Source: a bacterium
GTDB lineage: Bacteria > UBA9089 > CG2-30-40-21 > SBAY01
Direction of reading: 5' to 3'
Assembly (NCBI GenBank): GCA_040754115.1
Contig: JBFMDD010000032.1
Span: 1-32,197 of the forward strand
DNA: 32,197 nt
Shown: positions 2,627 through 28,774 of the stretch, piece by piece
How the letters are laid out: every line of letters starts with the position of its first letter
Numbering within the stretch: the stretch's first letter is position 1
The notes under the pieces: generated by a model
Told to the model about the DNA's origin: nothing
Databases searched by the model: none
What the model saw: only the letters and a program-made list of their open reading frames with translations
Made by a program: the position numbers and the translations under genes

Positions 2627-2733
2627 CTAAAAATAATATTAATCAGAAATTCCCCAACTTAATTTATAAAGAGTCTACGGCTACCACTGAAATTTCAATC
2701 TCACTTAAGTGAATTCTATAATCAAGGTCTGAG

Positions 2734-3032
2734 GTAACCGTTCAGGGTGTAATGAAGGGAAAAGGGGAATAGTGGGAAAACCTGTTCCTGACAGGTTCAG
2801 GAAAGGGAAATTTATTTTTATGGAGAGGGATTTGATAGTTATTCTGGTGATTTCTTTCGGATATTTATTTGTAAGCGTCCACAGAAAATTGAAATTGGAA
2901 ATTAGAAATTGGGCTTTCACTTCTCTCCCTAATTTCTAATTTCAACTCTCTTTTCTTTCCGTAAGCTTTCAAACAAAAGTGAACCCTCCCAAATTCTTTA
3001 ATATTTTCCCTTACTTACCCCTGAACGCTTAC
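2734..3032 (+). mobile_element. MITE-like nested repeat, copy A (outer shell plus inner core with GAAATTR heptamer hairpin)
   Basis: Terminal inverted repeats are GTAACCGTTCAGGGTGTAATGAAGGGAAAA (2734-2763) and the reverse complement of 3004-3032, GTAAGCGTTCAGGGGTAAGTAAGGGAAAA. The inner core spans about 2822-2990, with its hairpin at 2884-2945 (GAAATTAGAAATT / AATTTCTAATTTC). The whole element is the reverse complement of copy B (10009-10271), with indels. No coding capacity. The stop codon of the DUF3307 gene (3029-3031) lies inside the right TIR. Confidence 0.8.
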
Positions 3033-3739
3033 GGTCCGAGCCGCAATCGCAATATTAACCCAAAAATAAGTGCAATAGCAGTACTTGCAATGCTGTCAAA
3101 TAAGCTGTATTCTTCCTCCTTTACTCTGGAAATAGCCATTCTGCTAATCAGAACTGTTGGGATGAATAAAAAGAATAGCCCTGGCATAAGAATTAAAGCC
3201 ATAACTACCAACCGCTCAATTATTCCATAGCGTTTGGTACTTAATGCTTGACTTGTGTAATCTCTAACAAACATCTTCTTTAAATAATGAATAACTATTG
3301 CCCCAAAATAACCTGCTGCAATAAATCCACTTATTATTAAAATTATCGCTTTGTTATACAGCACACCTTTTATAAACTTGGGTATTGCAAGTGCAGTGGC
3401 AGAGATTGAAGCAATTATTAAACTAACTAACCACACCACTGCTATATGGCAAAATTGGTCTAATAAAAACATCCACAGATTGTCTAAATTAGTTTTAGAG
3501 GTAAAAAGTACTCTTGCATAATCAATCAGAAAGTGCGAGAGTATCAAGATAATGAGTGCCACCCACATCCGCATACAAAAGATATAAGGGAATAAAGGTA
3601 GTGCTGAAATCATCCCTACAATAGCACAATGCAGTAATACACCCCACTTACTCTTTACCTTTAATTTAAATAATTCATTAAATTGTAAAGGAAAATCTGC
3701 TATTAAATGAGCCAATAATAATTGATAGAAAATCATCAT
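3029..3739 (-). CDS. DUF3307 family integral membrane protein
   Basis: The N-terminus MMIFYQLLLAHLIADFPLQ matches the DUF3307 signature (LL.AH.iaDF.LQ), and the protein is multi-pass hydrophobic. The track ORF starts at GTG 3784. I prefer ATG 3739, which is preceded by GGAG at a 5-nt spacing. The start is uncertain (3739, 3754 or 3784). Confidence 0.7.
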   Translation of the reverse strand: MMIFYQLLLAHLIADFPLQFNELFKLKVKSKWGVLLHCAIVGMISALPLFPYIFCMRMWVALIILILSHFLIDYARVLFTSKTNLDNLWMFLLDQFCHIAVVWLVSLIIASISATALAIPKFIKGVLYNKAIILIISGFIAAGYFGAIVIHYLKKMFVRDYTSQALSTKRYGIIERLVVMALILMPGLFFLFIPTVLISRMAISRVKEEEYSLFDSIASTAIALIFGLILRLRLGP

Positions 3740-3773
3740 TTTAACTCCATTCATGAGATCCGAGACTACTACT

Positions 3774-4994
3774 CTACTTGTCACTTTCTCCTTTAATCAA
3801 TCCATCTTCATACGCCTTCAAAAATGCAGTTGCTACTTCTGAATCAAATTGAGAGCCAGCATGTTCTTTTATCTCATCTAAAGCCCGTTGATGCGGCAAT
3901 CCTTTACGATATGGTCTATCAGAGGTCATAGCATCAAATGTATCTGCTACTGCTAATATTTTACCTCCAATGGATATATCTTTACCTTGTAGTTTATTAG
4001 GATATCCATTTCCATCATATCGTTCATGATGTTGCCAGACACCTGGAACAATAGATTGTAATTGTTTTATTGGTCTAATAATTCCCGCTCCAATCTCAGG
4101 ATGTTTCTTAATTTGCTCAAATTCCTCATCTGTTAACTTTTCAGTTTTTCTAAGAATACTTTCATCAATTCCTATCTTACCAATATCATGAAGTAATCCT
4201 GCCAGTCTAATAGTTTCTTCCTCATCACTACTCAAATTTAATTTTTGAGCGATTGCTTGAGAATATTTCATTACCCGTTCACTATGTCCATGTGTATATG
4301 GGTCTTTTGCTTCAATAGTAGTAACTAAAGCCTTGATGCTGCTAAAGAATAGGTTTTTTAAATCCTCGTACAAGTGTGAATTTTCAATAGCAATTGCCTC
4401 TTGATTAGCCATTGCCTGCAGTAGTTCTAAATCATCTTTAGAGAACCTATCCTCTCCAATTTTATTAATAGCCTCTACTACCCCAATTATTCTGTTTTTA
4501 ATTAATAATGGGACACATAGAATAGATTTGGTTACAAATTTAATTTCCTCATCTATCCTGCGATCTTGAGAAAATCTTGGATCTTTACGAACATCCGCAA
4601 TTGAAATAGGTTGTTTGTTTTTAACTACCCACCCTGCTACCCCTTCACTGATAGGAAATCTAATCCTTTTTATCTCTTCTTTTTTCTCTCCCAGAGCTAC
4701 CTCAAACACAAATTCATTATGCTCCTCATCTATCAACATTAATGAAGATGCCTCTGCTTTTAATAGTTTAGTAGTAAGTTCCATAATTATAGGTAATAAT
4801 TCTTTTATGTGTAGAGTAGAATTAACAATTTGGCTTACTTCAACCAAAGATTCTAAAGTAGCCATCTTTTGACAAATGGCGTTAAAAGATTTATTAAATG
4901 AGTAAAATTTTTCGAGTTCAGTATAATCAAACTTTTTTACAATCTCTTTTTGTAATTCTTCTAATTGTGTTTGTGCTAATTTTAGTTCTTCCAT
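3774..4994 (-). CDS. GAF domain + HD-GYP domain protein (c-di-GMP phosphodiesterase type)
   Basis: HD-GYP motifs are present: HGHSERV, LHDIGKIGI, HHERYDGNGYP. The preceding region of about 150 aa (LMLIDEE..EFVFEVALG..GVAGWV) is GAF-like. The ATG overlaps the stop of the upstream gene by 13 nt. Confidence 0.85.
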   Translation of the reverse strand: MEELKLAQTQLEELQKEIVKKFDYTELEKFYSFNKSFNAICQKMATLESLVEVSQIVNSTLHIKELLPIIMELTTKLLKAEASSLMLIDEEHNEFVFEVALGEKKEEIKRIRFPISEGVAGWVVKNKQPISIADVRKDPRFSQDRRIDEEIKFVTKSILCVPLLIKNRIIGVVEAINKIGEDRFSKDDLELLQAMANQEAIAIENSHLYEDLKNLFFSSIKALVTTIEAKDPYTHGHSERVMKYSQAIAQKLNLSSDEEETIRLAGLLHDIGKIGIDESILRKTEKLTDEEFEQIKKHPEIGAGIIRPIKQLQSIVPGVWQHHERYDGNGYPNKLQGKDISIGGKILAVADTFDAMTSDRPYRKGLPHQRALDEIKEHAGSQFDSEVATAFLKAYEDGLIKGESDK

Positions 4995-7357
4995 TTTGAT
5001 AAAAATTCCTTTGCATAAATATCATCTGGACTAAGTTTTAATAAGTATTCAAACGCCTTTTTTGCCTCATCAATTTTCCCTTGATGGGCATAAATATTGC
5101 CTAATATCTTACATGTATTTGCATTTTCTGGGTTAAGGTGAAGGATAATTAAACATTGCTTAAGTGCCTCATCCAGATTATTTTCTTCAAGATAGAAAGA
5201 GACTAATCTTTCTCTAAGCCAGATAGTTCGAGGGCCGGATTCCTTAGCTAATAATTCCTTAATATCTGCTTTAATATCACCTTTGCCAGATTGTGCATAG
5301 GTTCGCATCAAATTGGTTAATGCCATAGAATAGTCAGGTTTAAGCCATAGTGCTTGTTTAAATTCCTTGATAGCCTCATCATATTTTCCAAGTCTTTGAT
5401 ACACCAATCCAATAGTATTATGTGGGTCTGGATTGTACGGGTCAACCTCTATTGCCTTTTTGAACGCCTTAACAGCTTTATCTAACTCTTTACCGCCCAA
5501 ATAGTATCCTGCACCTAAAATAGAGTTTCCTACACCATCATCAGGATTAAGAGCAATTAACTTTTGGGCTTGTGTAATAGTCTTTTTAATCCATACCTCA
5601 TCACCAGTATCCTGTGCATAATGTAAGTAGATAGAACATACCTCTCGATAATACTGAGTTTCGTAAGGATTAAATTGTAACGCTCGCTCAAATCTATATT
5701 GAGTGTCTTTTTTATACTCAGGAGGCATAGCCTGAAGTAAAGTTCCCTGTTCATAATTAAAATCAGCAATACATGGTCTTACAACTAATAAAATCCATAA
5801 CCAGATAGCCATTCCTATTGTAGCTAAAGAGATAATCCATCGCAATTCTTTAATTGTAATAGGTAGTGGAAAAGAAGTAGATTTAGCTCTAAATATCATT
5901 CCTGAGGCAAGGATAATCCAAAAGAAAGATGAAGAAGAAACACCAGTAGGACTGAAACTGTTTTGAATAAGATGAGAAAACAAAGCAGATAATAGTCCTG
6001 GAATAAGGAATTTTTCCATACCATCAGCATGCCAATAAGTCTTCAGGCAAATAATTATAAAAGTTATTAGCAGCCAGAGATAAATGATTAATCCAATAGT
6101 CCCTCTTGATACCCAAATATCTAATAACTCATTATGAACACTGGCAGCAGTAGCATAAGCTCCCTCTGCCATTGCAGATTCTACAGGTTTATACCGTGAA
6201 TGAATAATACCGACGGTATCTAACCCTATACCTAAAATTGGGTAGTCAAGAATGATATTTAATGCACCTTGCCATATGTATATTCGCGGATTTAACTTAG
6301 CCATAGAAGTAGCGGTGAATGTCCCAACTTCAAAAGGAGATACCTGTTTTGGTGGCGAAGGCTTAAAAATAGTTGCAAACCTACCAATTACAGCTAATTC
6401 TGGATTTATATTTGAAAAGACTAAATAGCAAAGAAAAATTACACCAAATATTCCTAATAACTGTCTTTTATAAGTAATTATCTTCTTTCCTAATAAAATC
6501 CCTATTAACGCAAGTCCTCCAACCATACCCAGAAAAGGTGCTCGACTGGCTGAAAAACAAAATCCATATAAAATTATACCAATACATATTCCATATACCC
6601 AAAAAGGTATTTTCTCTATTTGAGTTTTAGGTTGTTCAGGATATTGTAGAGTAACTCGTCTCTTTTTCTTTTTCTTTTTTGAAGGCACGGTATGTTTCTT
6701 TTCTTGCTTGTGTGTAATTTCTCTTGAGAAGAACATACATATTGTTATTCCTAACACCATAATAATATAATTCCCAAAACCAATAGGGTTGCCTAAACTT
6801 GATGATACTCTACCCCCAGTGAATAACTCCCATTTTACCGGGTCAAGACCATAATGTTGGATAATACCATAGCCTGCAACTAAAACACCACTAAGGATAA
6901 TTACATTAATAAACCAGAGAACTAATTCTTTATTTATAAAATTAACCACACAATAAAATAAAAATATGTAGTTAATCACTACAAGTAACCCTTCAAAATG
7001 GCCATAAAAGCCAAATAGGCTGATTATTGGGTTAATAGAAAAGATAGTAGCAATTATACTAATTAATAAGAAAGCAAGTATTGGAATATCAATAGGCGTT
7101 CTTACAAATTTAAGCTCTCTTGTAAAGACAATCTTGACTATCCATGTAATTGCAATAATCAGTGATAATGTGTACATAAAGGCTATCTTTTGGAGATCAA
7201 GGGCATTAATATTCAACCCGAAAAATAAAGGGATAGTAAATACCATTACCACTATACAGCTCACAATAACTCTATCATAGAGAGGTAATCGTTTACATCT
7301 GTAAAAGGTGATAGAAAATACTATTAATATCATACAGCCAATGATAAACATATTCAT
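4982..7357 (-). CDS. O-antigen ligase (Wzy_C) family polytopic membrane protein with C-terminal TPR repeats
   Basis: Wzy_C-type motifs are SASRAPFLGMVGG and VHNELLDIWVSRGTIG, with many TM helices. The C-terminal roughly 250 aa are TPR units (AVKAFKKAIEVDP, AIKEFKQALWLKP, AKKAFEYLLKLSP). It is a paralog of 7372..9633 and 18435..20945, sharing the N-terminal motif E(L/F)(K/Q)F(V/I)R(T/S).(I/L)D.P(I/V)LAFL. The RBS AAGGAG lies in the 14-nt gap upstream. Confidence 0.8.
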   Translation of the reverse strand: MNMFIIGCMILIVFSITFYRCKRLPLYDRVIVSCIVVMVFTIPLFFGLNINALDLQKIAFMYTLSLIIAITWIVKIVFTRELKFVRTPIDIPILAFLLISIIATIFSINPIISLFGFYGHFEGLLVVINYIFLFYCVVNFINKELVLWFINVIILSGVLVAGYGIIQHYGLDPVKWELFTGGRVSSSLGNPIGFGNYIIMVLGITICMFFSREITHKQEKKHTVPSKKKKKKRRVTLQYPEQPKTQIEKIPFWVYGICIGIILYGFCFSASRAPFLGMVGGLALIGILLGKKIITYKRQLLGIFGVIFLCYLVFSNINPELAVIGRFATIFKPSPPKQVSPFEVGTFTATSMAKLNPRIYIWQGALNIILDYPILGIGLDTVGIIHSRYKPVESAMAEGAYATAASVHNELLDIWVSRGTIGLIIYLWLLITFIIICLKTYWHADGMEKFLIPGLLSALFSHLIQNSFSPTGVSSSSFFWIILASGMIFRAKSTSFPLPITIKELRWIISLATIGMAIWLWILLVVRPCIADFNYEQGTLLQAMPPEYKKDTQYRFERALQFNPYETQYYREVCSIYLHYAQDTGDEVWIKKTITQAQKLIALNPDDGVGNSILGAGYYLGGKELDKAVKAFKKAIEVDPYNPDPHNTIGLVYQRLGKYDEAIKEFKQALWLKPDYSMALTNLMRTYAQSGKGDIKADIKELLAKESGPRTIWLRERLVSFYLEENNLDEALKQCLIILHLNPENANTCKILGNIYAHQGKIDEAKKAFEYLLKLSPDDIYAKEFLSKWKN

Positions 7358-7371
7358 CTTCTGGCTCCTTT

Positions 7372-9633
7372 TTACCTTGTTATCATACCAAGCATTTGTT
7401 TTGCATAACTGTTCTGCGGGTCGACCTTTAAAACTGCCTCAAACTCATGCCTTGCTTTATTAAATATTTGTTGATTGATATAAATAGTGCCTAAGTTATT
7501 ACGGGCAAAAATATTGTTTGAATCTAATTCAATTGCCTTTTTAAATTGAGTTTCTGCCTCTTTATATCTTTTTTGGTCGAAGTAAATTTTACCTAATTTG
7601 TTATAAGAGTCTGGTTTTTGAGGGTTATATGCAATAGCTTTTTTTAAAAGCTCTATTGCTTTATTTATCTGGCCTTTAACTTGATATAATTCACCTAAGA
7701 TTCGTAAGTAATTAGAATCATCTGGAAATATAGCAGAGGCTTGTTCCATTTCTCTAATTGCCTCATCATATTTTCCCTGTCTGACATAAATAGCAGCAAT
7801 ATTATTATGTGGGTCGGCAAATAGTGGTTTATATTTAATTGCATTTTTAGAGGCTTCAATTGACTTGTTAGCACAGCTCTCATCTCCACGAACATATTTC
7901 TCTCCATAAGCAGAACTTAAAAGATTGTAATAATAAGGATGAAGTGGATTACACCTAACTGCTTCCTCTCCTTTGGCAATAAGCATATCTAACCAATACA
8001 TATCTTGAGTTTGATTAAATTTAATATTATATGCATTCAAAATCTCACCATAATAAAATTCTTCACCAGGATTATACTCTAATGCCTTTTCATAACTGGC
8101 AATAGCCTGATCAATATTATTATAATGTACCATTGCTAACCCATTTTTATAGTAAATATCTGCAATATATGGTCGTAAAGATAAAGAAATGAGTTGGTAA
8201 ATTAAAATCAATAAAGGGATACATATTACAATACGAATAATAATATGTACTCTAATGGGTTTAGTCATTTGAGGTTTGGGCATACCGATAGGGATTGCCA
8301 TACCTAATAATAACCAGAATAAAGAAGATGTCCCAATGATTCCAAAGCCAACTTCATTTTGTACAAGATAAGAGATTATAGCGGCTAATACACCAACTAA
8401 TAAAATCTTGTTTTCTTGTTTAATTGAGGAATAATTTTTATATACAAATATAAATAGTAAAATTATAATCCAGAAGTATGCAGCTAATCCTAATAGTCCA
8501 CGAGTTATAGCCATATCTAAGGCTTCCATATGCGCCTTGTCAATCAGGCAATTTCTGCCCCCTTCTGAACGAATAAATTCAATATTTTCATACTTAGTAG
8601 AAACCATCCGTAAGGCATCCGGTCCTACTCCTAAAAAAGGATGTTCTTTTATAATCCGCAGTCCGGTTTGCCAGATATAAACTCTTGTCTCGGCAGTGCT
8701 GGTAAGTCTTATTGTTGGAATAGCTTTCCCTTCCTCTTTCTCTACTGCAATTGTTGATGTAAACTTTTTCACTAAACCCGATTCTCCCTTTAGGAAAAAT
8801 ATTCCAGTAGCAACACTCATAATTACAAAAAGTATTGAAAATCGTAGCTTCATTTTAAGAAATTGTTTCACTAATAGGATGCCAAATAAAAGTATTCCTG
8901 TACCAAGTCCAAGTGCTCCTCCTCGATGAGCAAGTAGAGAAAAGCATTTATAGATTAAGAGAAGACTTATCAAAGAAGTAGCTAAAAAAATAATTTTTTT
9001 TACCATAGTGTGCTTCTTTGAATATGGCAGGAGGAATAGAGTTAAAGGGAGAAAGAAAACCATAGCTAAATAGCCACCTACGAAATTAGGATTGCCAAAA
9101 GTAGAAATTAACCCAGATTCCCATTTGGTTAAATCAATTCCATAGAATTGCAATATTCCACAACCAGCAACTAAGACTCCAGCAAAAGTGATAAAACCAA
9201 TAGTTCTTTTAAGATATTTGCGTTGCCTTAAAAAATTAACCGCAATATAATATATAAAGATATAATTAACAGTGCTAATTAATCCATCGTATCTTTTGTA
9301 TTCGCCTACCAGACTCATATACGGATGTACACCATTTATTGTAGCGGCGATACTTATAATTAAAAAGGCAAGTATCGGGACATCAAGTGGGGTTCTTATG
9401 AACTGAAATTCATTTGTAAATGTAATTTTTAAACACCAAATTCCAAGAATAATAAGTGTCAATACCCGCATAGCAGTTACTTTTGCTAAATCAAAACTGG
9501 TTATATGTGGGTCAAAGAGAAGTGGGATTATTAAAAACATTAAAACCAAAATAACAATAATTACTCTATCGAAATATTCACTAATTTTCTTTGAGTGTTT
9601 TAATAGATTCCTTGAAAGCTTTGATATATTCAT
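7372..9633 (-). CDS. O-antigen ligase (Wzy_C) family polytopic membrane protein with C-terminal TPR repeats
   Basis: Motifs LAHRGGALGLGTG and KAHMEALDMAITRGLLG are Wzy_C-type. It shares the N-terminal motif EFQFIRTPLDVPILAFLIISIAATI with its paralogs, and the C-terminal half is TPR. Confidence 0.8.
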   Translation of the reverse strand: MNISKLSRNLLKHSKKISEYFDRVIIVILVLMFLIIPLLFDPHITSFDLAKVTAMRVLTLIILGIWCLKITFTNEFQFIRTPLDVPILAFLIISIAATINGVHPYMSLVGEYKRYDGLISTVNYIFIYYIAVNFLRQRKYLKRTIGFITFAGVLVAGCGILQFYGIDLTKWESGLISTFGNPNFVGGYLAMVFFLPLTLFLLPYSKKHTMVKKIIFLATSLISLLLIYKCFSLLAHRGGALGLGTGILLFGILLVKQFLKMKLRFSILFVIMSVATGIFFLKGESGLVKKFTSTIAVEKEEGKAIPTIRLTSTAETRVYIWQTGLRIIKEHPFLGVGPDALRMVSTKYENIEFIRSEGGRNCLIDKAHMEALDMAITRGLLGLAAYFWIIILLFIFVYKNYSSIKQENKILLVGVLAAIISYLVQNEVGFGIIGTSSLFWLLLGMAIPIGMPKPQMTKPIRVHIIIRIVICIPLLILIYQLISLSLRPYIADIYYKNGLAMVHYNNIDQAIASYEKALEYNPGEEFYYGEILNAYNIKFNQTQDMYWLDMLIAKGEEAVRCNPLHPYYYNLLSSAYGEKYVRGDESCANKSIEASKNAIKYKPLFADPHNNIAAIYVRQGKYDEAIREMEQASAIFPDDSNYLRILGELYQVKGQINKAIELLKKAIAYNPQKPDSYNKLGKIYFDQKRYKEAETQFKKAIELDSNNIFARNNLGTIYINQQIFNKARHEFEAVLKVDPQNSYAKQMLGMITR

Positions 9634-9642
9634 TGTGGGTTT

Positions 9643-9672
9643 AGTATATCATACTCATATTCAAAAAGTCAA
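9643..9672 (-). promoter_or_regulatory. Sigma70-type promoter TTGACT-18-TATACT, 9 nt upstream of ATG 9633 (leaderless-type)
   Basis: The minus strand reads TTGACT (9672-9667), an 18-nt spacer, TATACT (9648-9643), aaacccaca, then ATG. There is no SD. A second overlapping TTGACT lies at 9677-9672. Confidence 0.55.
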
Positions 9673-9699
9673 GTCAATAATTTTATATGAAAAACTGTT

Positions 9700-9760
9700 G
9701 GTGTCTGACAAGAGCTATACTTCAGTGGGTTATAAATTGTGATTCGAGAGCGTTACAAAT
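9700..9760 (+). repeat. Short dispersed module GGTGTCTGACAA ... CGTTACAAAT (copy 1)
   Basis: GGTGTCTGACAA at 9700-9711 and CGTTACAAAT at 9751-9760. The same two blocks recur at 12441-12452 and 12475-12484 with a shorter spacer. Confidence 0.6.
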
Positions 9761-10008
9761 GACTTTTAGTTATGATGCGGTTTTGGGAGAGTTTTGGGTG
9801 ATAAAAGATGCTAAAGTGAAAAAAAAAGAGATAATTTGCTTAGTTGACATCAAGAGGAGTATAAGCATTCAGTAAAGTGGTATGTTGCATTTTAAACCGT
9901 AACTTCACACCAAAGTTTTGCACGAAATCGAATCTATCATACTTTTATCACACTATTGCTTTTTATAAGCCACAGATGGACACAGAATTACACAGATAAT
10001 AACTAAAT

Positions 10009-10271
10009 GTAAGCGTTCAGGTGTAAGTAAGGGAAAATGGAAGAGCAGGGAAAAAGGGGAAAAATATTAAAGAATTTGGAACGGTTCACTTTTGTTTGAA
10101 AGTTTGCGGAAAGAAAAGAGAGTTGAAATTCGAAATTAGAAATTAGGGAGAGGACTGAAGACCTAATTTCTAATTTCCAATTTCTAATTTCTGCAAGAAA
10201 TCATAGGAAAAACGATAAAATGAGCCGTCCCTAAATTTCCCATTTTCCCTTCATTACACCTGAACGGTTAC
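10009..10271 (-). mobile_element. MITE-like nested repeat, copy B (inverted relative to copy A)
   Basis: It starts GTAAGCGTTCAGGTGTAAGTAAGGGAAAA and ends TTTTCCCTTCATTACACCTGAACGGTTAC. The inner core spans about 10078-10231, with its heptamer hairpin at 10124-10192 (GAAATTAGAAATTAGG / CCTAATTTCTAATTTC). The element ends 20 nt before the -35 box of the VWA gene promoter. Confidence 0.8.
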
Positions 10272-10290
10272 AAAAATATTTTTATAACAC

Positions 10291-10319
10291 TTGACATGTG
10301 AGTAAATTTTTGGTATATT
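10291..10319 (+). promoter_or_regulatory. Sigma70-type promoter TTGACA-17-TATATT for the VWA/TPR pair
   Basis: TTGACA is at 10291-10296, followed by the 17-nt spacer tgtgagtaaatttttgg and TATATT at 10314-10319. The SD AAGGAGG (10332-10338) and ATG 10340 follow. The promoter lies inside the track ORF that starts at 10298, which argues against that start. Confidence 0.65.
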
Positions 10320-10339
10320 TCTATAAAAGTCAAGGAGGT

Positions 10340-11401
10340 ATGATGAATTTAGATAGATTATTTGCTCAACCAGAATATTTAGTAATATTAGCTGCTGTGC
10401 CTATTTTAATATTATTTTATATAGTTGTGTTTAAGCAGAAAAAGAAAGCATTAGCTAAATTTGGCAATTTAGAACTGATACAAAAAATGTCTCAGTCTGC
10501 AAGCTATAACCGCCAGAAAATAAAGGTTATCCTAATTATACTCACTTTTATTTTATTGATAATTGCGTTATCAAGACCTCAAATAGGGACCAAATTAGGC
10601 ATAATAAAGAGGAAAGGTATTGATATGATTTTAGCTATTGATACTTCTTTTAGTATGATGGCAGAGGATATTAAACCCAATAGATTAGAAAAGGCAAAAC
10701 AGGAGGTAAGCAGATTGATTGATAAATTAAAAGGAGATAGGGTAGGTTTGGTTACCTTTGCAGGTAAAAGTTTTGTTCAATGCCCATTGACTCTTGATTA
10801 CAGTGTGGCTAAAATGTTATTAGATGGGATCGATATAAATACCATTCCTGTTCAAGGCACTGCTATTGGAGATGCAATAAGATGTGCAACTAATGCCTTT
10901 GTTAAAAAAGAACGAAAGCATAAGGTGCTAATTTTACTTACTGACGGAGAAGACCATGACAGCAATCCTATTCAAGCAGCTAAAGAGGCTAAAAAAGAAG
11001 GGGTGAAAATCTATCCTGTTGGGATAGGCTCTACAAAAGGAGAACCCATTCCAATAAAAACTCCAGATGGGCAGATTGAAGAATATAAAAAAGATTCTTC
11101 TGGCGAGATTGTTATGAGTAAATTAGATGAAATTACATTAGAAAAGATTGCACTCATCACTGATGGAAAATACTACCATGTTACCTATGGTGAGATTGAA
11201 TTAGATAAAATATACAAGGATATATCAAAAATGGAAAAAAAGGAACTTCGGACTAAACAATATACTCAATATGAAGATAGATTCCAATATTTCCTAATGG
11301 GAGCATTAATTTTATTGGTATTAGAGATGGCTATAAGTGATAGAAAGAGAGTAAAAAAAGGAAATTTGATAACTGAACGATTAATTGGAGGTCAATGGTG
11401 A
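10340..11401 (+). CDS. von Willebrand factor A domain membrane protein (BatA/BatB-like)
   Basis: The MIDAS motif DMILAIDTSFSM and LLTDGEDH are present. There is an N-terminal TM pair (FAQPEYLVILAAVPILILFYIV) and a C-terminal TM, as in Bacteroides aerotolerance BatA/BatB. The start was moved to ATG 10340, which is in frame and preceded by AAGGAGG. Confidence 0.8.
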   Translation: MMNLDRLFAQPEYLVILAAVPILILFYIVVFKQKKKALAKFGNLELIQKMSQSASYNRQKIKVILIILTFILLIIALSRPQIGTKLGIIKRKGIDMILAIDTSFSMMAEDIKPNRLEKAKQEVSRLIDKLKGDRVGLVTFAGKSFVQCPLTLDYSVAKMLLDGIDINTIPVQGTAIGDAIRCATNAFVKKERKHKVLILLTDGEDHDSNPIQAAKEAKKEGVKIYPVGIGSTKGEPIPIKTPDGQIEEYKKDSSGEIVMSKLDEITLEKIALITDGKYYHVTYGEIELDKIYKDISKMEKKELRTKQYTQYEDRFQYFLMGALILLVLEMAISDRKRVKKGNLITERLIGGQW

Positions 11402-12054
11402 ATAGTTTATGTATTAAGGTATTTATTTTAATTACTTCCTTTCTCTTTATAGGATTTGGGGATAGCCTTACTTCTAAGAACAAGGCTGGAAATAAACTTT
11501 ATGAGCAAGGGAAATATGATGAGGCATTGGCTAAATATCGCGATGCACAACTTGATGAACCTGAATCACAGGAACTATATTTTAATATAGGTGATATTTT
11601 ATATAAAAAGCAAAGGTATGAAGAGGCAATTAAAGAGTATCAAAAGGTACTAACAAGTAAAGATACTCTCCTGCAAGCTAAAACTTATTATAATATTGGT
11701 AATTGTCAATACAGAGCTGGTAAATTAGTCGATGCAATTACCTCTTACAAAAAATCATTAGAGATTAACCCGAATGATTTAGAGGTAAAGTATAATTTAG
11801 AGTTTGTGCGTAAGAAGTTAAAAGAATTAGCACAAAAACAACAAGAGAAAAAACAGTCAGCCCAAGCCGATAAGCAAAAACAAAATGAGGAAAGAAAGAG
11901 AGGGAAACAAGTCCAAAAAGAAAAAGACAAAAAGAAGATGTCTAAAGAAGATGCTAAACGAATATTAGAGGCTTTGGAAGAGGATGAAAAGGATGCTCAA
12001 AAGCGCAAGCAACTACAAATGAGTGGTGCTAAACAGGTAGAAAAAGATTGGTAG
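11395..12054 (+). CDS. TPR repeat protein with Lys/Glu-rich tail (BatC-like)
   Basis: It has a signal/TM N-terminus, three TPR units (ALAKYRDAQLDEP, AIKEYQKVL, AITSYKKSLEINP), and a charged tail (QQEKKQSAQADKQKQNEERKRGKQVQKEKDKKK). The ATG overlaps the VWA stop (ATGGTGA), and GGAGG lies upstream. Confidence 0.75.
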   Translation: MVNSLCIKVFILITSFLFIGFGDSLTSKNKAGNKLYEQGKYDEALAKYRDAQLDEPESQELYFNIGDILYKKQRYEEAIKEYQKVLTSKDTLLQAKTYYNIGNCQYRAGKLVDAITSYKKSLEINPNDLEVKYNLEFVRKKLKELAQKQQEKKQSAQADKQKQNEERKRGKQVQKEKDKKKMSKEDAKRILEALEEDEKDAQKRKQLQMSGAKQVEKDW

Positions 12055-12055
12055 A

Positions 12056-12231
12056 GACGGTTCATTTTATCGTTTTTCCTATGATTTCTCTCGGATATTT
12101 ATTTGTAAGCGTCCACAGAAAATTGAAATTGGAAATTAGAAATTGGGCTTTTACTTCTCTCCCTAATTTCTAATTTCCAATTTCAACTCTCTTTTCTATC
12201 CGCAAGCTTTCAAACAAAAGTGAACCGTCCC
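12056..12231 (+). mobile_element. MITE-like core element, copy C (core only, same orientation as A)
   Basis: The ends are GACGGTTCATTTT (12056-12068) and AAAGTGAACCGTCCC (12217-12231), which are inverted. The hairpin spans 12125-12184, built from GAAATTG/GAAATTA units against TAATTTC/CAATTTC units. The element starts 2 nt after the TAG stop of the TPR gene. Confidence 0.8.
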
Positions 12232-12240
12232 GATTGGTAG

Positions 12241-12390
12241 TTATCTCTTTTTATAATCAGGACAAAGTGTAGCATTGGGGCGTTCTGGTCTTTGACAGGC
12301 AGTACGATAATCATACTTACAACTATCACATAAAAATGGGTATCCTTTTAAAAATTGTGTAATCCGTTGCCAAATCATCTTAAAATTCAT
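12241..12390 (-). CDS. Small 49-aa four-cysteine protein (not in the ORF track): MNFKMIWQRITQFLKGYPFLCDSCKYDYRTACQRPERPNATLCPDYKKR
   Basis: I translated this by hand from the minus strand: ATG at 12390 and TAA at 12243-12241. The Cys pattern C-x2-C-x7-C-x11-C is zinc-ribbon-like. A consensus promoter ends 7 nt upstream of the ATG. My recollection of similar small CxxC..C..RP..RP..C..Y proteins in other bacteria is vague and unverified. Confidence 0.5.
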   Translation of the reverse strand: MNFKMIWQRITQFLKGYPFLCDSCKYDYRTACQRPERPNATLCPDYKKR

Positions 12391-12397
12391 ATTGAAA

Positions 12398-12426
12398 ATT
12401 ATAGCATAGATATGTTAAAATATCAA
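12398..12426 (-). promoter_or_regulatory. Sigma70-type promoter TTGATA-17-TATAAT, 7 nt upstream of ATG 12390 (leaderless-type)
   Basis: The minus strand reads TTGATA (12426-12421), the 17-nt spacer ttttaacatatctatgc, TATAAT (12403-12398), tttcaat, then ATG. Confidence 0.6.
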
Positions 12427-12440
12427 CTTGAATTTTTGAT

Positions 12441-12484
12441 GGTGTCTGACAATAGTTATAGTTATACTCAACACCGTTACAAAT
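12441..12484 (+). repeat. Short dispersed module GGTGTCTGACAA ... CGTTACAAAT (copy 2)
   Basis: GGTGTCTGACAA is at 12441-12452 and CGTTACAAAT at 12475-12484. It directly abuts MITE-like copy D. Confidence 0.6.
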
Positions 12485-12496
12485 TGCGATTTTAGA

Positions 12497-12643
12497 AACG
12501 GCTCACTTTAGCGTGAAAGCTTGCGGTTAAAAAATGGATATGAAATTAGAAATTGGGGAAAGAGGTGAAGACCTAATTTCCAATTTCTAATTTCTAATTT
12601 CCAAAGGAAATCACAGGGAAAAACGATGAAAATAAACCGTCCC
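12497..12643 (-). mobile_element. MITE-like core element, copy D (core only, inverted relative to C)
   Basis: It runs AACGGCTCACTTT ... AAATAAACCGTCCC. The hairpin spans 12542-12602 (GAAATTAGAAATTGGGG / CCTAATTTCCAATTTCTAATTTCTAATTTCC). The flank GCGGTTAAAAAATGGATA (12523-12540) recurs at 32169-32185. Confidence 0.75.
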
Positions 12644-12646
12644 TAA

Positions 12647-12676
12647 ATAGCTCAGTTAATGGCAGTGTTCAGTATA
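12647..12676 (+). repeat. Short dispersed module ATAGCTCAGTTAATGGCAGTGTYCRGTATA (copy 1)
   Basis: 12647-12676 matches the reverse complement of 31935-31963, with 2 mismatches that I can see. Confidence 0.6.
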
Positions 12677-17460: not shown

Positions 17461-17481
17461 AAGGTATTATCTCCCTTTAAT

Positions 17482-17528
17482 TTGGTAATTGGTAACTGGT
17501 TACCATTTAACCAATTACCAGTTACCAA
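17482..17528. repeat. Heptamer-built hairpin (GGTAATT/GGTAACT units) between yidD and yidC
   Basis: TTGGTAATTGGTAACTGGTTA (17482-17502) faces TAACCAATTACCAGTTACCAA (17508-17528). This gives 21 positions with one T.G and one C.A mispair, and the loop is CCATT. Alternative registers are possible because the arms are 7-nt repeats. Confidence 0.8.
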
Positions 17529-18260: not shown

Positions 18261-18373
18261 AGTAGAGAGTAGAGAGTAGAGAGTAGAGAGTAGAGAGTAG
18301 AGAGATTTTTGGTTGACTATTTATCAGTCTTCTTCACATTTCTCTCTACTTTCTACTCTCTACCCTCTACTTC
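18261..18373. repeat. Inverted heptamer array: (AGTAGAG)x6.3 facing 4 imperfect CTCTACT-type units, about 36-nt spacer
   Basis: 18261-18304 is agtagag repeated 6 times plus ag. 18343-18370 reads tctctac tttctac tctctac cctctac. The array lies entirely between the promoter at 18384-18412 and the rpmH start. Confidence 0.9.
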
Positions 18374-18434: not shown

Positions 18435-20945
18435 CTATCTGGTCATAGAATCTACTACTTGTCTAAGTCCCGTATCCTCTGGGTGATATCTTAGATACAG
18501 TTCAAATTCACTTTTTGCTTTATAATATAAAGTAGCATCTTCATTTATTTGTCCTTTTGTTCTTTTACTTTCTGCTGCTCTAAAATAAGCAGCACCTAAG
18601 TCACGGCGGACATTTATATTTTTAGGGTCTATTTTAACTATTTCTTCAAATGCCTTTGAAGATTCATCATATTTGCCTTGTGAAAAGTATATCTCGCCTA
18701 ATCTATGATGAGCATTAATTAGGTCTGGCTCAACTGCAAGGGCTTTTTTTAGCCAATTAATTGCCTCATTATAGTCTCCCTTCTTAAAATAAATATCACC
18801 TATGGTTACTTTGCATTGTCCATCATTTGGTCTCATCTTTGCTACCTTTTTATACTCTGCAATAGCATTATCATACTCGTTATCTTTAGAATATAATGCT
18901 CCTAAGTTATTAAGTGGTTCTGCAAAGATAATATTATATTTTAATGCTGCATGATATGCCTCAATAGCCTTTTGTTTAGCTGTTTTAGAACCTACATCGT
19001 ACTCCAATGCATAAGTAGCTCCTAAAATATTATAAAAATAGCCATCTTTCGGATTAACCTTAAAGGCATCTTTTATACGATTAAATGTCTTACGAATCCA
19101 TTCCTTTTTTAGTTCTATTTGAGTCATGGGGATAGAAGCAGCTTTCTTATAATAGGTATATGTCAACTCACCGTAATAGTGTCTTTCTCTAAAATTGCGG
19201 TGTACTGCCTCTTCATACATCTTTAAAGCTGTATCTAAGTCTTGGTCATGAATTGCTTTTTCGCCTTTATTAAAGTAGTAATCTGCTCGATAGGGGAAAA
19301 GAGAAAGGTAACCTAATAAGCAAACTACTACAACGACTAAAGTAGCTAAACCAGTTTGAATAGGTGTAAGTCGAATGTAAAGAGAAGGCTTTTTATGTAT
19401 ATCAGGTTCTATTTTCTGAGGTGTAAGCCTGGTATAACCACAAACTACCATTGTCATACCCATTAAAGTCCAGTAAAAAGGAGTAAAAGAGACAACTGCA
19501 AAGGCAAATTGATTTTGCACTATATACGCTGTCCAGCCAGATAGAAATCCAGCTATTAGTAATTTATCTTTTTCTACTGGGGCACGAAGGTACCCTCTAA
19601 TAGCCAGATAAATAAAAGCACCTAATAACCAAAGATAGATTGCCAACCCTCCTAAACCTCTTGTAACAGCCATGTCAAATACTTCATTATGAGCTCTATC
19701 GTAGTCAACATTATATCCTTCTAATTTCTCCATACCAGGTAGTTCATAAAGAGGATATACCCACTTCATAGTATCTACTCCTACCCCAAATAATAACCCA
19801 CAATAAGGGAAAGTCAGTGGGCCACGAATTGGTCCATCTTGAGGATAATGAGCAATAATTATAGCCGAATTCCGCCATATAAAGTATCGAGAGCCAAGTG
19901 CTCCTATAAGTTTATTTATCAACCAATTTTTTTTAGGCTGAGTAGATTCTGAAATTTCCTCTTCCCCAGTAATCACCTTCTGAAGGATTTCTCCCTTTTC
20001 TTCTTTAGCTGACTTGATAACATTAACCATTCGTTCTGCTACTGAACCCGGTTGAAGGCAAAGATAACCTGTAAATATTAAAAATGTTAAACTAAATACC
20101 ATAGCCCTCTTTCGAGTATAAATAAATGCCTTTTTAGTCCACAGAGTAGCAAATAGAATTATGCCTGCTAATAAACCTGCCAGAGGCCCACGGCTTTTTG
20201 CTAAGAATAAAGATGCGTACATAGTAATTAAAGCTATTCCAAATAACCAACTCTTTATTGTCTCCTCTCTACCTTTATGAATAAGCTTTTTATTCTTTGC
20301 CTTTTTCTTTGGAATAACTTTCTGCAGAATATCTTCCTTTATAAAGAAATATCCTATTGTTACCGGGATAATTGTAGCTAAGTATGCACCCAAAAATATA
20401 GGGTTACCAAATGTAGCCACAGCCCTTTCCTGGACATCCGCAGCCCAGGATATAGGGTCAAGACCTGCTCTTTGAACAAATGTGTAAAAAGAAGCTATGA
20501 ATCCAACTCCTATTCCTACATAAGCTGTTAGATTAAGTAATTTGCGATTATTATGTAAGAAATTAGTTGCAGTAAAAAATAGCAGTACATAACAAATAGT
20601 TGTGGTTAACCCTTCATGCCTTTTATAAGCACCAACTATACTTGTAAATGGGTCAACTGAGAATATTGTCGAGACAATGCTGACTAAAAGAAAGGCTAAA
20701 ACAGGTAAGTCCAATTTACTACGCACAAATTTAAATTCATTGGTTAAAATTATTCGCAAAAGCCATGCACCTATTATAACTAATGAAAATAGGCGCAATA
20801 AAGTCACCTTCGGAATGTCAAATACACCTCTACAGTGGGTGTCAAAGTAAAGCGGAACAACAAGAAGTAATCCTAAAAAAGCCCATTCAACTACTTTAGT
20901 ACAAATATCTTCTATCTTCTTCTTATTCATTTTTTCCAACTCCAT
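18435..20945 (-). CDS. O-antigen ligase (Wzy_C) family polytopic membrane protein with C-terminal TPR repeats
   Basis: Motifs LAKSRGPLAGLLAG and RAHNEVFDMAVTRGLGG are Wzy_C-type. The N-terminal EFKFVRSKLDLPVLAFLLVSIVSTI is shared with the two paralogs at 4982-9633, and the C-terminal roughly 280 aa are TPR. No SD precedes ATG 20945. Confidence 0.8.
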   Translation of the reverse strand: MELEKMNKKKIEDICTKVVEWAFLGLLLVVPLYFDTHCRGVFDIPKVTLLRLFSLVIIGAWLLRIILTNEFKFVRSKLDLPVLAFLLVSIVSTIFSVDPFTSIVGAYKRHEGLTTTICYVLLFFTATNFLHNNRKLLNLTAYVGIGVGFIASFYTFVQRAGLDPISWAADVQERAVATFGNPIFLGAYLATIIPVTIGYFFIKEDILQKVIPKKKAKNKKLIHKGREETIKSWLFGIALITMYASLFLAKSRGPLAGLLAGIILFATLWTKKAFIYTRKRAMVFSLTFLIFTGYLCLQPGSVAERMVNVIKSAKEEKGEILQKVITGEEEISESTQPKKNWLINKLIGALGSRYFIWRNSAIIIAHYPQDGPIRGPLTFPYCGLLFGVGVDTMKWVYPLYELPGMEKLEGYNVDYDRAHNEVFDMAVTRGLGGLAIYLWLLGAFIYLAIRGYLRAPVEKDKLLIAGFLSGWTAYIVQNQFAFAVVSFTPFYWTLMGMTMVVCGYTRLTPQKIEPDIHKKPSLYIRLTPIQTGLATLVVVVVCLLGYLSLFPYRADYYFNKGEKAIHDQDLDTALKMYEEAVHRNFRERHYYGELTYTYYKKAASIPMTQIELKKEWIRKTFNRIKDAFKVNPKDGYFYNILGATYALEYDVGSKTAKQKAIEAYHAALKYNIIFAEPLNNLGALYSKDNEYDNAIAEYKKVAKMRPNDGQCKVTIGDIYFKKGDYNEAINWLKKALAVEPDLINAHHRLGEIYFSQGKYDESSKAFEEIVKIDPKNINVRRDLGAAYFRAAESKRTKGQINEDATLYYKAKSEFELYLRYHPEDTGLRQVVDSMTR

Positions 20946-20953
20946 TTATTTAG

Positions 20954-20999
20954 TGATTGGTGACTGGTAATTGGTTAAATAGTTACCAGTTACCAATCA
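20954..20999. repeat. Heptamer-built hairpin (GGTGACT/GGTAACT units) overlapping the GH57 stop codon
   Basis: TGATTGGTGACTGGTAA (20954-20970) pairs with TTACCAGTTACCAATCA (20983-20999), giving 17 bp with one G.T. The loop is 12 nt. The TGA stop of GH57 is 20999-20997. The hairpin ends 8 nt upstream of ATG 20945. Confidence 0.85.
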
Positions 21000-26380: not shown

Positions 26381-26980
26381 ATGTTAAAAAGAAGTTTTAT
26401 CTTTAGCATATGTGTAGTAATAAGTTTTTGTGTTGTGACATGTATTGAATCAAAAATATGTTATGGGATAAAAGCAAAAGTCGAACAAAGTAGTGAGGAT
26501 ATTGCTTTAGGAGAAGATGGAAAAGAAGAACTTGCAGGTGGAAAATATAATATTAACCTGTTTGTTCTGATTATAAAGGCTATCTTCTCACTCATAATTA
26601 TTACTGTACTCATCTATTTTATCCTTCGTTTCTTTCTGAAAGGACAGAGATGGATTACCAAACAATCAGGACTTATCCAAATTATCGCTACTCATCCTTT
26701 AGCCCCTAATAAATATATCCAGATAGTAGAAATTGGTAATAAGTTATTAGTTTTAGGTGTGAGCGAACATAACATTAATTTATTGACTGAAATTGTAGAT
26801 AAAGAAGTAATAGATTTTATTAAAATACAATCTTCTAAACAAGAAGATAAAATGCAACTATCCTTTATCCAACATCTAAAAAATAAACTTCGTGTCCAAG
26901 AAATACAACAAACAGACTATGACGAAAAGCTAAAATTTTTAAATAAACAAAGAGAAAGATTAAGAAAATTAGAAGCATAG
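26381..26980 (+). CDS. FliO/FliZ-like flagellar export-apparatus accessory protein
   Basis: The architecture and core resemble Bacillus FliZ/FliO as I recall them: a signal-like N-terminus, a central TM (FVLIIKAIFSLIIITVLIYFIL), then LIQIIATHPLAPNKYIQIVEIGNKLLVLGVSEHNINLLTEI (compare ..VQLIKVGKSVLVVGVGE.IQLLKEI). The match is from memory and is not a scored alignment. Confidence 0.6.
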   Translation: MLKRSFIFSICVVISFCVVTCIESKICYGIKAKVEQSSEDIALGEDGKEELAGGKYNINLFVLIIKAIFSLIIITVLIYFILRFFLKGQRWITKQSGLIQIIATHPLAPNKYIQIVEIGNKLLVLGVSEHNINLLTEIVDKEVIDFIKIQSSKQEDKMQLSFIQHLKNKLRVQEIQQTDYDEKLKFLNKQRERLRKLEA

Positions 26981-26998
26981 AGCCAAAAGGAGGATAAA

Positions 26999-28774
26999 GT
27001 GGACTACTTTGACTCAAATATGACACTATTAACAAAAAGAGAGCCTCAATTAGTTAAGCGATTGGAAGGAGTAACTCCATCTCCGGATGTTAACCTTGCC
27101 TCTTTACCAACTACCCCTATAATTGATCCTAATATGAGTTTAAATCATATCAATACATTAGTAGTGTTAGGTTTTGGAGTGGGAACTCATGTAAGAGAGC
27201 TGGCAGAAAGAGTTCAAAAGAAAACACTTTTACTGGTAATCGATCCTGATATAGCTACTTTCAAGGCATTACTTAAAATAATAGATTTAACTCCTATTTT
27301 ACAATCACCCAATGTTAAACTTGCAATTGGAGAGTCTGCCACCCATGCTGTGCGATATCGAATAGATGATTACTATAAAGTAAATACTGTTCCTGATATA
27401 ACCATTGCAGAACACAAATGGTCTGTTAAAAAGAATCCCGAGTATTATGAGAAAATAAAGGAATTATTGGAGGAGTCAAGTATTATTGGCCGTCAAAATT
27501 TAGCTACACTTATGGAAAGTGCTTCCCTATGGCAAAATCAGATTCTAACCAATATATCTATTATTATAAAATGTCCTGGTCTAAAAGCATTGTTTGGTAG
27601 ATTTCCAAATATCCCTACAATTATAGTTGGAGCAGGTCCTTCTCTTGATAAAAATGTTGCTTATTTAAAAGATGCTAAAGATAAGGCATTAATTATATGT
27701 GTAGATACAGCGTTAAGAACTCTATTTAATAATAATATTAAACCAGATTTGGTGGTAACTATTGATGCTACTGCAAAAAATTATAATTATTATTTAAAAG
27801 ACCTTGATTTATCAGATATATATTTAATTGCAGGCCCTGCAGTTTACCCGCAGACTATGTTATCCTTCGCCCCAAAGATATTTGTAAGTAGTTTTGGACA
27901 TCCATTATTAGATTGGATTGAGACATTTATAGGGACGAAAGGAACTATTAAACTTGGTGGCTCTGTTTCAACCGCTGCATTTGATTTGGCTCGAAGATGT
28001 GGTGCTAACCCTATTGTATTTATCGGTCAGGATTTAGCATTTACAGATGATAAAGTATATACCTCTGGAGTGAAAAAGGAACGAATAAAAGAGGTAGAAG
28101 AGGTAATGCCAAAAGCTGATATTATCTGGGTAGAGGATATTTATGGTGGTAAAGTGAAGACTGTACGGGGTATATGGACATGGATTAAATGGTTTGAACA
28201 TCAAATAAGTGAAATACCACATGTTCTTTGTATTGATGCTACTGAGGGAGGTGCTAAAATACAGGGAACTAAAATCATGACATTAAAAGGGGTGATTGAA
28301 AATTATTGCCAAAAATATATTAATATTAGCCAGATTTTACATGATGCAACTAAACATTATGTTTTATCTGATATGACTAACCTATTGCGAGAAATGGAGG
28401 TATTAATAAAAGATTGGAGAAAGGTACAATTTATTGGGAAAGAAGGGGCAATACTGGCAAATAAACTACTCGAAATAATAGCAGATAACCAGATAAATAA
28501 AAGAGCTAAAAAGATATTTAAAGAACTGGGTGTTCTATATCAACGGATAATTGAAAATCACAAAGGACTACTAAGACTCGGTAGTTGGAACTTAGAACCG
28601 TTATTATTTAAAATGGAGAAGTATCATTTAAGTAATGACCCAAATATGAGAGTTAGAGCATGTAAAAGCTTCTTTGAAGAAATATCAACCTATTGTCAAG
28701 ATTCTGTTGCATCACTACAATCAGTCCATAAGAAATTATTAGAGATAGAAGAGGAAAGAAAAAAGTATTTTTAA
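26999..28774 (+). CDS. Motility-accessory-factor (Maf) type DUF115 / MptE-like glycosyltransferase
   Basis: The DUF115 core is PTIIVGAGPSLDKN ... LIICVDTALRTL ... PDLVVTIDA ... GGSVSTAAFDLA ... IVFIGQDLAF. The size (591 aa) is typical of Maf flagellin glycosyltransferases. A GTG start follows the SD AAGGAGG. Confidence 0.7.
   Translation: MDYFDSNMTLLTKREPQLVKRLEGVTPSPDVNLASLPTTPIIDPNMSLNHINTLVVLGFGVGTHVRELAERVQKKTLLLVIDPDIATFKALLKIIDLTPILQSPNVKLAIGESATHAVRYRIDDYYKVNTVPDITIAEHKWSVKKNPEYYEKIKELLEESSIIGRQNLATLMESASLWQNQILTNISIIIKCPGLKALFGRFPNIPTIIVGAGPSLDKNVAYLKDAKDKALIICVDTALRTLFNNNIKPDLVVTIDATAKNYNYYLKDLDLSDIYLIAGPAVYPQTMLSFAPKIFVSSFGHPLLDWIETFIGTKGTIKLGGSVSTAAFDLARRCGANPIVFIGQDLAFTDDKVYTSGVKKERIKEVEEVMPKADIIWVEDIYGGKVKTVRGIWTWIKWFEHQISEIPHVLCIDATEGGAKIQGTKIMTLKGVIENYCQKYINISQILHDATKHYVLSDMTNLLREMEVLIKDWRKVQFIGKEGAILANKLLEIIADNQINKRAKKIFKELGVLYQRIIENHKGLLRLGSWNLEPLLFKMEKYHLSNDPNMRVRACKSFFEEISTYCQDSVASLQSVHKKLLEIEEERKKYF

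Follow-up and report, generated by a model that had tools for sequence, protein, structure and literature searches.

A dispersed miniature inverted-repeat transposable element and its probable nesting within a second small element in uncultured low-G+C bacteria

Introduction

Contig JBFMDD010000032.1 of assembly GCA_040754115.1 (32,197 nt, 33% G+C, analysed over its whole length and hereafter called the window) carries four copies, A to D, of a palindromic repeat within about 10 kb, and two of these, A and B, are enclosed by a further pair of inverted ends. The locus therefore raises the question of what these layered repeats are, how they came to lie where they do and whether they serve their host. 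An initial annotation, made from the sequence alone, had described a core that occurs by itself or inside a shell, and had likened both to MITEs (transposable elements of the miniature inverted-repeat kind, as defined in PMC10969869). Here we report that the core is a bona fide dispersed MITE, bounded by terminal inverted repeats (TIRs) and flanked by target-site duplications (TSDs). With a probability of roughly 0.8, we read the complete structure as this core MITE nested in a second small TIR- and TSD-bearing element, the shell, with the composite having then been mobilised.

Results and Discussion

The core is a small inverted-repeat element with a heptamer hairpin at its centre

Repeat detection, a four-way alignment and an nhmmer profile built from the four window cores all recovered copies A to D where the initial annotation had placed them, far beyond chance, with profile E values of 1e-42 to 1e-44. 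The core units within these copies are as follows.

2822..2990, plus strand: core MITE in A (nhmmer E 6e-42), with a right TIR GGGAGGGTTCACTTT at 2990 on the minus strand
10078..10231, minus strand: core MITE in B (nhmmer E 6e-43), with both TIRs and flanking 8-mers that match at only 4/8 positions
12054..12231, plus strand: core MITE copy C (nhmmer E 1e-43), with both TIRs and a perfect TSD
12497..12643, minus strand: core MITE copy D (nhmmer E 6.5e-42), with one TIR at 12643 on the minus strand and a degenerate other end

The left end of the core in A is likewise degenerate, no left TIR being detected there, and no TSD was seen at D. Repeat detection confirmed that A and B are inverted relative to each other (82 nt at 93% identity). 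A and C are direct repeats over 121 nt at 91% and 62 nt at 94%, and the inverted pairs B/C and A/D align over 116 nt at 90% and 102 nt at 78%, respectively.

The proposal that the core has inverted ends of its own was borne out. Its 15-nt TIR, GGGAYGGTTCAYTTT, occurs six times in the window when up to two mismatches are allowed, against an expectation of 0.21. Core copies are 128-225 bp long (composites measure 263-299 bp) and are non-coding; the open reading frame (ORF) list shows only short overlapping ORFs and no real one within the elements. When full-length copies are aligned, about 45 nt of subterminal sequence is conserved on each side. Between these regions lies a hairpin whose arms are tandem heptamers arrayed in inverted orientation. 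Each arm has 2-5 units and the loops span 13-50 nt; heptamer sequence and repeat number vary among copies: GAAATTR/YAATTTC in most, a GAATATC type in L009 and L029, and ACGAAYT in L001. Folding z-scores relative to shuffled sequence were -8.2 for core C and -10.4 for B.

The core is dispersed across related genomes and duplicates its target

We scanned a species-representative genome collection with a 27-nt pattern taken from the right end of the core. The pattern was found on at least 32 contigs in at least 8 other species-representative metagenome-assembled genomes (MAGs); among the matches listed are Yes70-31, Yes70-08, Yes70-25, Yes70-06, MEGAHIT-group-0.789, the 'Nitrospirota' MAG MEGAHIT-group-1.534, UBA9088 and Modern_marine.mb.176. 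The G+C content of the core-bearing contigs ranges from 32% to 45%. We then searched the window and the loci L001-L034 with the four-copy nhmmer profile, which gave 44 non-overlapping hits, 27 of them full length. Of these hits, 40 (23 of them full length) fall beyond the window and come from 8 other MAGs and a single JGI metagenome contig; Yes70-31 alone supplies 23 hits of the total. The initial annotation had taken a count of four copies, and no more, as the mark of a local duplication, and the count is evidently far higher. Its further expectation, that core and shell should each occur independently, holds for the core, which is found elsewhere without the shell, and was not borne out for the shell, which was not seen without a core, or anywhere but in A and B, in 257 kb of related DNA or in the metagenome, viral, plasmid and phage searches.

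Relatives of the window's MnmE that are 77-89% identical are labelled 'MAG: bacterium' where a source is named at all, and the nearest named relatives, Candidatus Desantisbacteria, are at about 50-54% identity. A homologue of the window's DUF3307 protein, 74% identical to it, is labelled 'Nitrospirota bacterium', so the 'Nitrospirota' tag on one element-bearing MAG need not denote a distant phylum.

Target-site duplication was scored for those copies with both TIRs that allowed it (n=22, window copies included), with shifted offsets as the control. An 8-bp TSD was perfect in 12/22 copies and matched at 7 or more of its 8 positions in 17/22, compared with 2.0-3.5 matches (about 2.5/8) at the shifted offsets. 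The perfect TSDs are 71% A+T and approximate GAAWTTTC. Since this target consensus resembles the core's own heptamers, it may explain why some copies sit in the heptamer hairpins of other elements, as in L015 (TSD CTAATTTC) and L010.

Of the four window copies, C alone is truly solitary. The initial annotation had seen no obvious TSD, had called both C and D naked cores and had placed the start of C at 12056, 2 nt after the stop codon of the tetratricopeptide repeat (TPR) gene. In fact C begins at 12054 and is flanked by a perfect 8-bp TSD, GATTGGTA, at 12046-12053 and 12232-12239. It is inserted on the TPR stop codon itself, the TA of the TAG coming from the duplicated target and the G being the first base of the element. 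At the orthologous position in L035, whose TPR protein is 71% identical, the sequence is uninterrupted (...AAAGACTGGTGATTACCTTTTTTTATAATC...) and runs directly into the sequence that follows C in the window. The L035 site is thus an empty site for copy C. Of the two cores described as naked, C is so and D is not, its flanks (12462-12496 and 12644-12676) travelling with it in L036.

These data also bear on whether the four copies arose by segmental duplication within the 10-kb region rather than by transposition. All four do lie within 10 kb, and A and B share internal junctions. Set against this are the occurrence of the family, with TSDs particular to each copy, on dozens of contigs from at least 8 further genomes, the unrelated flanks of A, B and C, and the empty site for C, and we regard a purely local origin as close to impossible.

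The shell has its own termini and a target duplication

The shell and its surroundings comprise the following features.

2734..3032, plus strand: composite copy A (shell, nested core and a small third-layer insertion), with ends GTAACCGTTCAGG at 2734 and GTAAGCGTTCAGG at 3032 on the minus strand, aligning with B over shell and core
2726..2733, no strand: left TSD of shell A, GGTCTGAG, a 7/8 match to GGTCCGAG
3033..3040, no strand: right TSD of shell A, GGTCCGAG, which encodes the last codons of DUF3307
10009..10271, minus strand: composite copy B (shell and nested core), inverted relative to A, with both shell ends and arms at 10008-10040 and 10240-10272

Exactly four occurrences of the end GTAASCGTTCAGG are present in the window, at 2734, 3032 (minus), 10009 and 10271 (minus), compared with 0.06 in shuffled sequence, and the inverted shell ends that had been proposed for A and B were recovered as repeats of 30-33 nt. 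One end starts GTAAGCG (GTAAGCGTTCAGG at 3032 (minus) and 10009) and the opposite end GTAACCG. The two arms of B are 33 nt long and 91% complementary, and the right arm of A and the left arm of B are 97% complementary. Shell A is flanked by the near-perfect 8-bp pair GGTCTGAG/GGTCCGAG, a second instance of the duplications that had been overlooked.

As had been noted from the sequence, the shell TIR of A contains the stop codon of DUF3307 (3029-3031). On the minus strand this gene now ends ctc gga ccg TAA, its TAA being supplied by the TIR, and beyond the shell the bases ctc aga cct tga would have closed the original gene at equal length. The C-termini of DUF3307 proteins have the same length in 11 relatives, and three relatives at 75-78% identity have no element downstream. 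A base-exact empty site for shell A is not readable in these relatives, whose last codons are too diverged, and a metagenome search for DUF3307-related loci gave no match.

The shell was not found in 36 related loci (about 250 kb), and blastn of A against plasmids and phages gave no match. A blastn-short search against all loci returned only a 20-nt match to the shell interior in L028, without the termini. Two other elements share the shell's ends. The first, a chance find, is a 140-bp element (L044:260-399; 252-407 with its TSDs, record positions 26951-27106) on plasmid pGM3709_03 of Geminocystis sp. NIES-3709. Its ends, GTAAGCGTTCAGGGG.../...CCCCCTGAACGGTTAG, have the same 15 terminal bases as the shell, and it is flanked by a perfect 8-bp TSD, GTTATTTC; no further copy was found in the plasmid collection. 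The second, in MAG Yes70-08, is a 179-bp element (L014:1681-1859) with ends GTAACCGTTCAGG.../...GTGAACGGTTAC that is inserted into, and truncates, a core copy, and is thus a third member of this GTAA-CGTTCA-ended group. The same termini on these two elements indicate that those of the shell belong to a genuine transposable lineage. What speaks for the shell as a family that moves independently is its own TIR and TSD, its likeness to IS66 ends (see below) and the one cyanobacterial element with the same termini.

The core probably entered the shell once, before A and B formed

The annotated arrangement of a dispersed, non-autonomous inverted-repeat element that occurs alone in C and inside a second inverted-repeat element in A and B was upheld by these results. 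The junction between core and shell, ..CC|AAATTCTTTAATATT in B, is identical in A. Since A and B share identical junctions, they point to one insertion of the core into the shell, followed by movement of the composite as a unit. We therefore propose a sequence of events in which a single core would first have inserted into a shell; the composite would then have moved by way of the shell ends, yielding A and B; and segments would later have been exchanged among copies, with A also gaining a palindromic insert of about 40 nt. That insert lies opposite a gap in B and contains the following repeat.

2778..2803, no strand: 26-nt palindromic mini-repeat AACCTGTTCCTGACAGGTTCAGGAA, with the same 26 nt at L035:1032-1057

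The recurrence of this palindrome in L035, where it lies upstream of the gene for a von Willebrand factor A (VWA) protein, suggests that the insert in A is a third layer of nesting. The palindrome resembles the very small dispersed repeats known from Nostoc, and work by Mazel in 1990 and Elhai in 2008 is said to have described, for that genus, STRR repeats as well as small dispersed repeats that lie nested within MITEs.

The exchange of segments is suggested by the mosaic make-up of the cores. At the centre, A equals C (67/70 positions) and B resembles D (40/47), while the right end is shared by A, B and C (42-43/46), with D divergent. Such a pattern calls for recombination or gene conversion among the copies.

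Several observations weigh against the nested reading. The need for later recombination or gene conversion is itself one of them. Only two shells were seen, those of A and B, each with a core inside it, and a search with the shell's TIR pattern gave no hits in JGI metagenomes or in viral contigs. The putative TSD of shell B matches at only 5/8 positions, and for the cores inside A, B and D a TSD is either degenerate or missing. The count of copies in the window's own genome covers the 32-kb window alone. Finally, 257 kb of related DNA yielded neither an autonomous element nor a transposase with matching ends.

Copy D lies within an additional conserved unit.

12462..12676, minus strand: 'shell-2', enclosing D, with ends TATACTCAACAC... 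and ...GTGTTCAGTATA

In another genome, L036:4391-4588 matches the flanks and core of D together at about 95% identity; there the unit is inverted with respect to the TPR gene, whose protein is 62% identical. In L036 the D-type unit follows a direct CTGGTAA/TTGGTGA array that occupies positions 4297-4390, after the TPR gene. The 31-nt arm of shell-2 at 12646-12676 (TATACYGRACACTGCCATTAACTGAGCTATT) recurs inverted at 31934-31964, 19 kb away. We considered whether this 31-nt repeat was a tRNA fragment, and ARAGORN found no tRNA.

A DDE-type transposase acting in trans would account for both elements

The combination of TIRs with a TSD of fixed length, 8 bp, points to a DDE-type transposase acting in trans and argues against Y1 enzymes such as those of IS200/IS605 or RAYT. 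An enzyme of the DDE type would move the core by a cut-and-paste or copy-out route, making staggered cuts 8 bp apart and preferring AT-rich sites near GAAWTTTC. The ends of the core, GGGACGGTTCA, and of the shell, GTAACCGTTCA, share 8/11 terminal positions, and both elements give 8-bp TSDs. These shared features make an IS66-like enzyme the leading candidate for the mobilisation of core and shell alike. Other insertion sequence (IS) families that produce 8-bp TSDs are ISL3, IS256, IS1595 and IS6.

The initial annotation reported no transposase in the window, with which Pfam searches of the 22 window ORFs and a domain analysis of MnmE agree. In the 257 kb of loci, where every unpaired TIR was inspected, no TIR pair 0.7-4 kb apart encloses a transposase. 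Since no autonomous element was found, mobilisation in trans and the assignment to an IS family are what we infer from the ends and the TSDs.

Four candidates for a parent element were considered and set aside. The second 'TIR' in L014 is a chance match inside a coding sequence that appears, by eye, PDDEXK/YhcG-like. Variants in L004, L026 and L024 share about 230 nt of non-coding sequence and have no ORF. L013 carries copies in almost every intergenic gap, and its ORFs are by eye of housekeeping type, none of them transposase-like. The last candidate, in L004:1-255, is a fragment of an ORF directly next to a core-type end. The fragment ends ...VDFDNDTVTAFGG, is like the N-terminus of some DDE transposases but has no Pfam hit, and is probably an insertion target and not part of a parent element.

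The initial annotation had instead named IS200/IS605 TnpA and RAYT enzymes among the partners to search for, under which the repeats would be repetitive extragenic palindromic (REP/REPIN-like) or IS200/IS605-derived palindromes moved by a Y1 (HUH) transposase. The elements are indeed highly palindromic, intergenic and numerous, and the window holds no DDE transposase. It holds no Y1 transposase either. Elements moved by Y1 enzymes, IS200/IS605 and REPINs among them, insert without target duplication and lack true TIRs. Here the ends are inverted repeats and an 8-bp duplication accompanies 17/22 copies, so that such partners are very improbable.

Gene-end positions are consistent with tolerated insertion

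Among the 27 core copies that could be placed, 20 overlap no ORF of at least 90 amino acids and 9 lie within 20 nt of a stop codon. The initial annotation had suggested from such positions that the copies serve as terminators or insulators, and a broader form of this explanation holds that the hairpins primarily serve the host (as terminators, insulators, RNA-stability or RNase III sites, or small RNA genes), so that position at gene ends reflects function. In its favour are the 9/27 copies close to stop codons, the insertion of C and shell A at or just before a stop codon with regeneration of the stop, the stability of the predicted structures, and the location of A and B upstream of strong promoter-like sites. 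The latter are TTGACA-17-TATATT at 10291, whose -35 box begins 19 nt after the end of B and confirms the proximity noted earlier, and TTGACA-18-TATAAT at 2626 (minus). MITE-derived small RNAs and terminator-like MITEs are also known (PMC10969869).

The evidence from the elements themselves points the other way. A scan for terminators (a G+C-rich stem followed by a T-run) gave two sites in 10.5 kb, fewer than in shuffled sequence and none in A, B, C or D, and Rfam 15 returned no match at the gathering threshold, only sub-threshold noise from eukaryotic microRNA hairpins. The suggested role as terminator or insulator thus found no backing. Moreover, both orientations are found among the copies, length and sequence are free to vary in the central hairpin, and orthologous sites in relatives are empty (C in L035; three DUF3307 relatives). 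Compact genomes also offer little neutral space except at gene ends. We consequently think it improbable that the hairpins exist primarily for the host. The gene-end pattern is what tolerated insertions look like in compact genomes, and individual copies may in addition have been exapted.

A possible link between the core and genes for rRNA intervening-sequence proteins

One locus may point to a different ancestry for the core family. In L005 (Yes70-31; L005:2-420, minus strand), a core-type right end, consisting of the TIR, the 45-nt subterminal region and a GAAATTR arm, at 350-420 is followed by a gene for a 23S rRNA intervening-sequence protein (IVP), a four-helix bundle. The gene is a near-complete PF05635 (Pfam E 1.3e-20, profile positions 2-105 of 106). 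In five MITE copies (L010, L011b, L015, L021 and L032) the loop aligns with the ribosome-binding site and the first ~10 codons of this gene and then jumps to the opposite arm. These five loops look like internal-deletion derivatives of an IVP-bearing element.

A second IVP gene, L029:2105-2655, has GGGATGA/TCATCCC arrays on both sides and no core ends. The closest plasmid-borne IVP homologues are almost all cyanobacterial, and the plasmid loci inspected were the following.

L041, L042, L045, L046, L049 and L050: plasmid IVP loci, with arrays such as AGTAGGG/CCCTACT and GGGAACA/TGTTCCC
L043, L047 and L048: further plasmid IVP loci

Inverted heptamer arrays flank 7/10 of the IVP genes inspected, a small sample, including 6/9 on cyanobacterial plasmids, and the heptamer differs at each. 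The remaining genes have direct arrays on both sides (L048), an array on one side only, and none, in one case each. The Geminocystis element with shell-type ends lies about 150 bp downstream of one of the heptamer-armed IVP genes.

From these observations it is conceivable, although we consider it unlikely, that the core family descends from an IVP-gene hairpin cassette rather than from a decayed IS, and that such cassettes form a widespread selfish or mobile class shared with cyanobacteria. If true, this origin would explain orphan heptamer hairpins (STRR-like repeats) and would tie heptamer hairpins to the stem-plus-ORF architecture of rRNA intervening sequences. A limited check of the literature on heptamer arrays and convergent array pairs found no mention of a link to IVP genes.

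Comparison with known elements

Prokaryotic MITEs are non-coding elements of 50-500 bp with TIRs and TSDs that are AT-rich, intergenic and able to form stable stem-loops (PMC10969869), and those described here share these features; they differ in being an undescribed sequence family in an uncultured host lineage. The elements are small and non-coding, with TIRs and a TSD of fixed length; the core is multi-copy, dispersed and polymorphic, and the shell was seen in only two copies. The insertion of one element into another is also seen in the nested BOX/RUP/SPRITE clusters of Streptococcus pneumoniae (PMC10969869). No match to the core or shell was found in the literature (searched with both TIR strings), in Rfam or in plasmid and phage collections. 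We consider core and shell to be two undescribed MITE families, a known kind of genome parasite that implies no new mechanism.

IS66-family elements have inverted repeats of 20-30 bp that start GTAAGCG and 8-bp direct repeats (PMC11946415). The shell resembles them in its 30-33-nt inverted repeats with GTAAGCG/GTAACCG starts and in its 8-bp duplication, which is evident at A (7/8) and weak at B (5/8). Unlike IS66 members, the elements carry no tnpA, tnpB or tnpC, and no IS66 transposase was found in any sequence examined, so that the link consists of the ends and the TSD length. The features of REPIN/RAYT and IS200/IS605-derived elements do not fit, since both TSDs and TIRs are present.

The BrickBuilt MITE of Porphyromonas gingivalis likewise has an interior tandem repeat of variable copy number and is always intergenic, but its repeat is a 23-nt direct minisatellite, whereas here two inverted 7-nt arrays form a hairpin (PMC4596501). 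Heptamer arrays are known from other bacteria: GGGGAYT in Nostoc and GGGAATC in Xanthomonas (PMC4692102), and TAACTGA in Beggiatoaceae (PMC4679880). They share with the present elements intergenic tandem heptamers, sometimes in convergent pairs able to form stem-loops, and the nesting of small repeats in larger ones. They differ in that the hairpin here forms the interior of a transposable element with TIRs and TSDs at its boundaries, and in that the host is not a cyanobacterium.

The core is abundant across a clade of uncultured low-G+C bacteria whose nearest named relatives are Desantisbacteria, and it offers clean TSDs, an empty site and apparently three layers of nesting. The elements explain assembly breaks in these MAGs and provide markers for strain typing. 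They also mark places where 3'-end annotation of genes is affected: an element supplies, wholly or partly, the stops of DUF3307 and of the TPR gene. Of wider interest is the possible link between heptamer hairpins, IVP genes and MITEs.

Genes and other small repeats in the window and its relatives

The genes of the window include an rnpA-yidD-yidC-jag-mnmE cluster, O-antigen-ligase/TPR genes, a BatA-like VWA gene, DUF3307, a GAF-HD protein and others. Heptamer hairpins also occur in its intergenic regions free of any element, at 17474-17528, 20942-20996 and 18261-18372, with TTGGTAA/CTGGTAA units in two and AGTAGAG in one. Their settings are the yidC-yidD gap, the space separating a pair of minus-strand genes, and a position upstream of the gene for L34 (rpmH, read by eye, its ORF being shorter than those listed).

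An unannotated ORF of 49 amino acids, rich in cysteine (MNFKMIWQRITQFLKGYPFLCDSCKYDYRTACQRPERPNATLCPDYKKR), lies between C and D at 12241-12390 on the minus strand. It is preceded by a near-consensus promoter at 12426-12398, and its DNA is conserved at L035:2858-3007.

The ends of the core are also found on another interior. An element of about 165 bp at L023:3777-3941 (minus strand) has core-type TIRs, GGGACGGTTCATTTT ... GAACCATTCC, enclosing an unrelated sequence without heptamers, which suggests a second MITE subfamily that uses the same ends.

Finally, the genomes of the relatives carry several unrelated small palindromic repeats. One such family, GGGGAAA..CCTTTGAAAAGGGTT..TTCCCC, was observed at L035:3360-3560 and L038:4795-4860, in relatives from two JGI samples.

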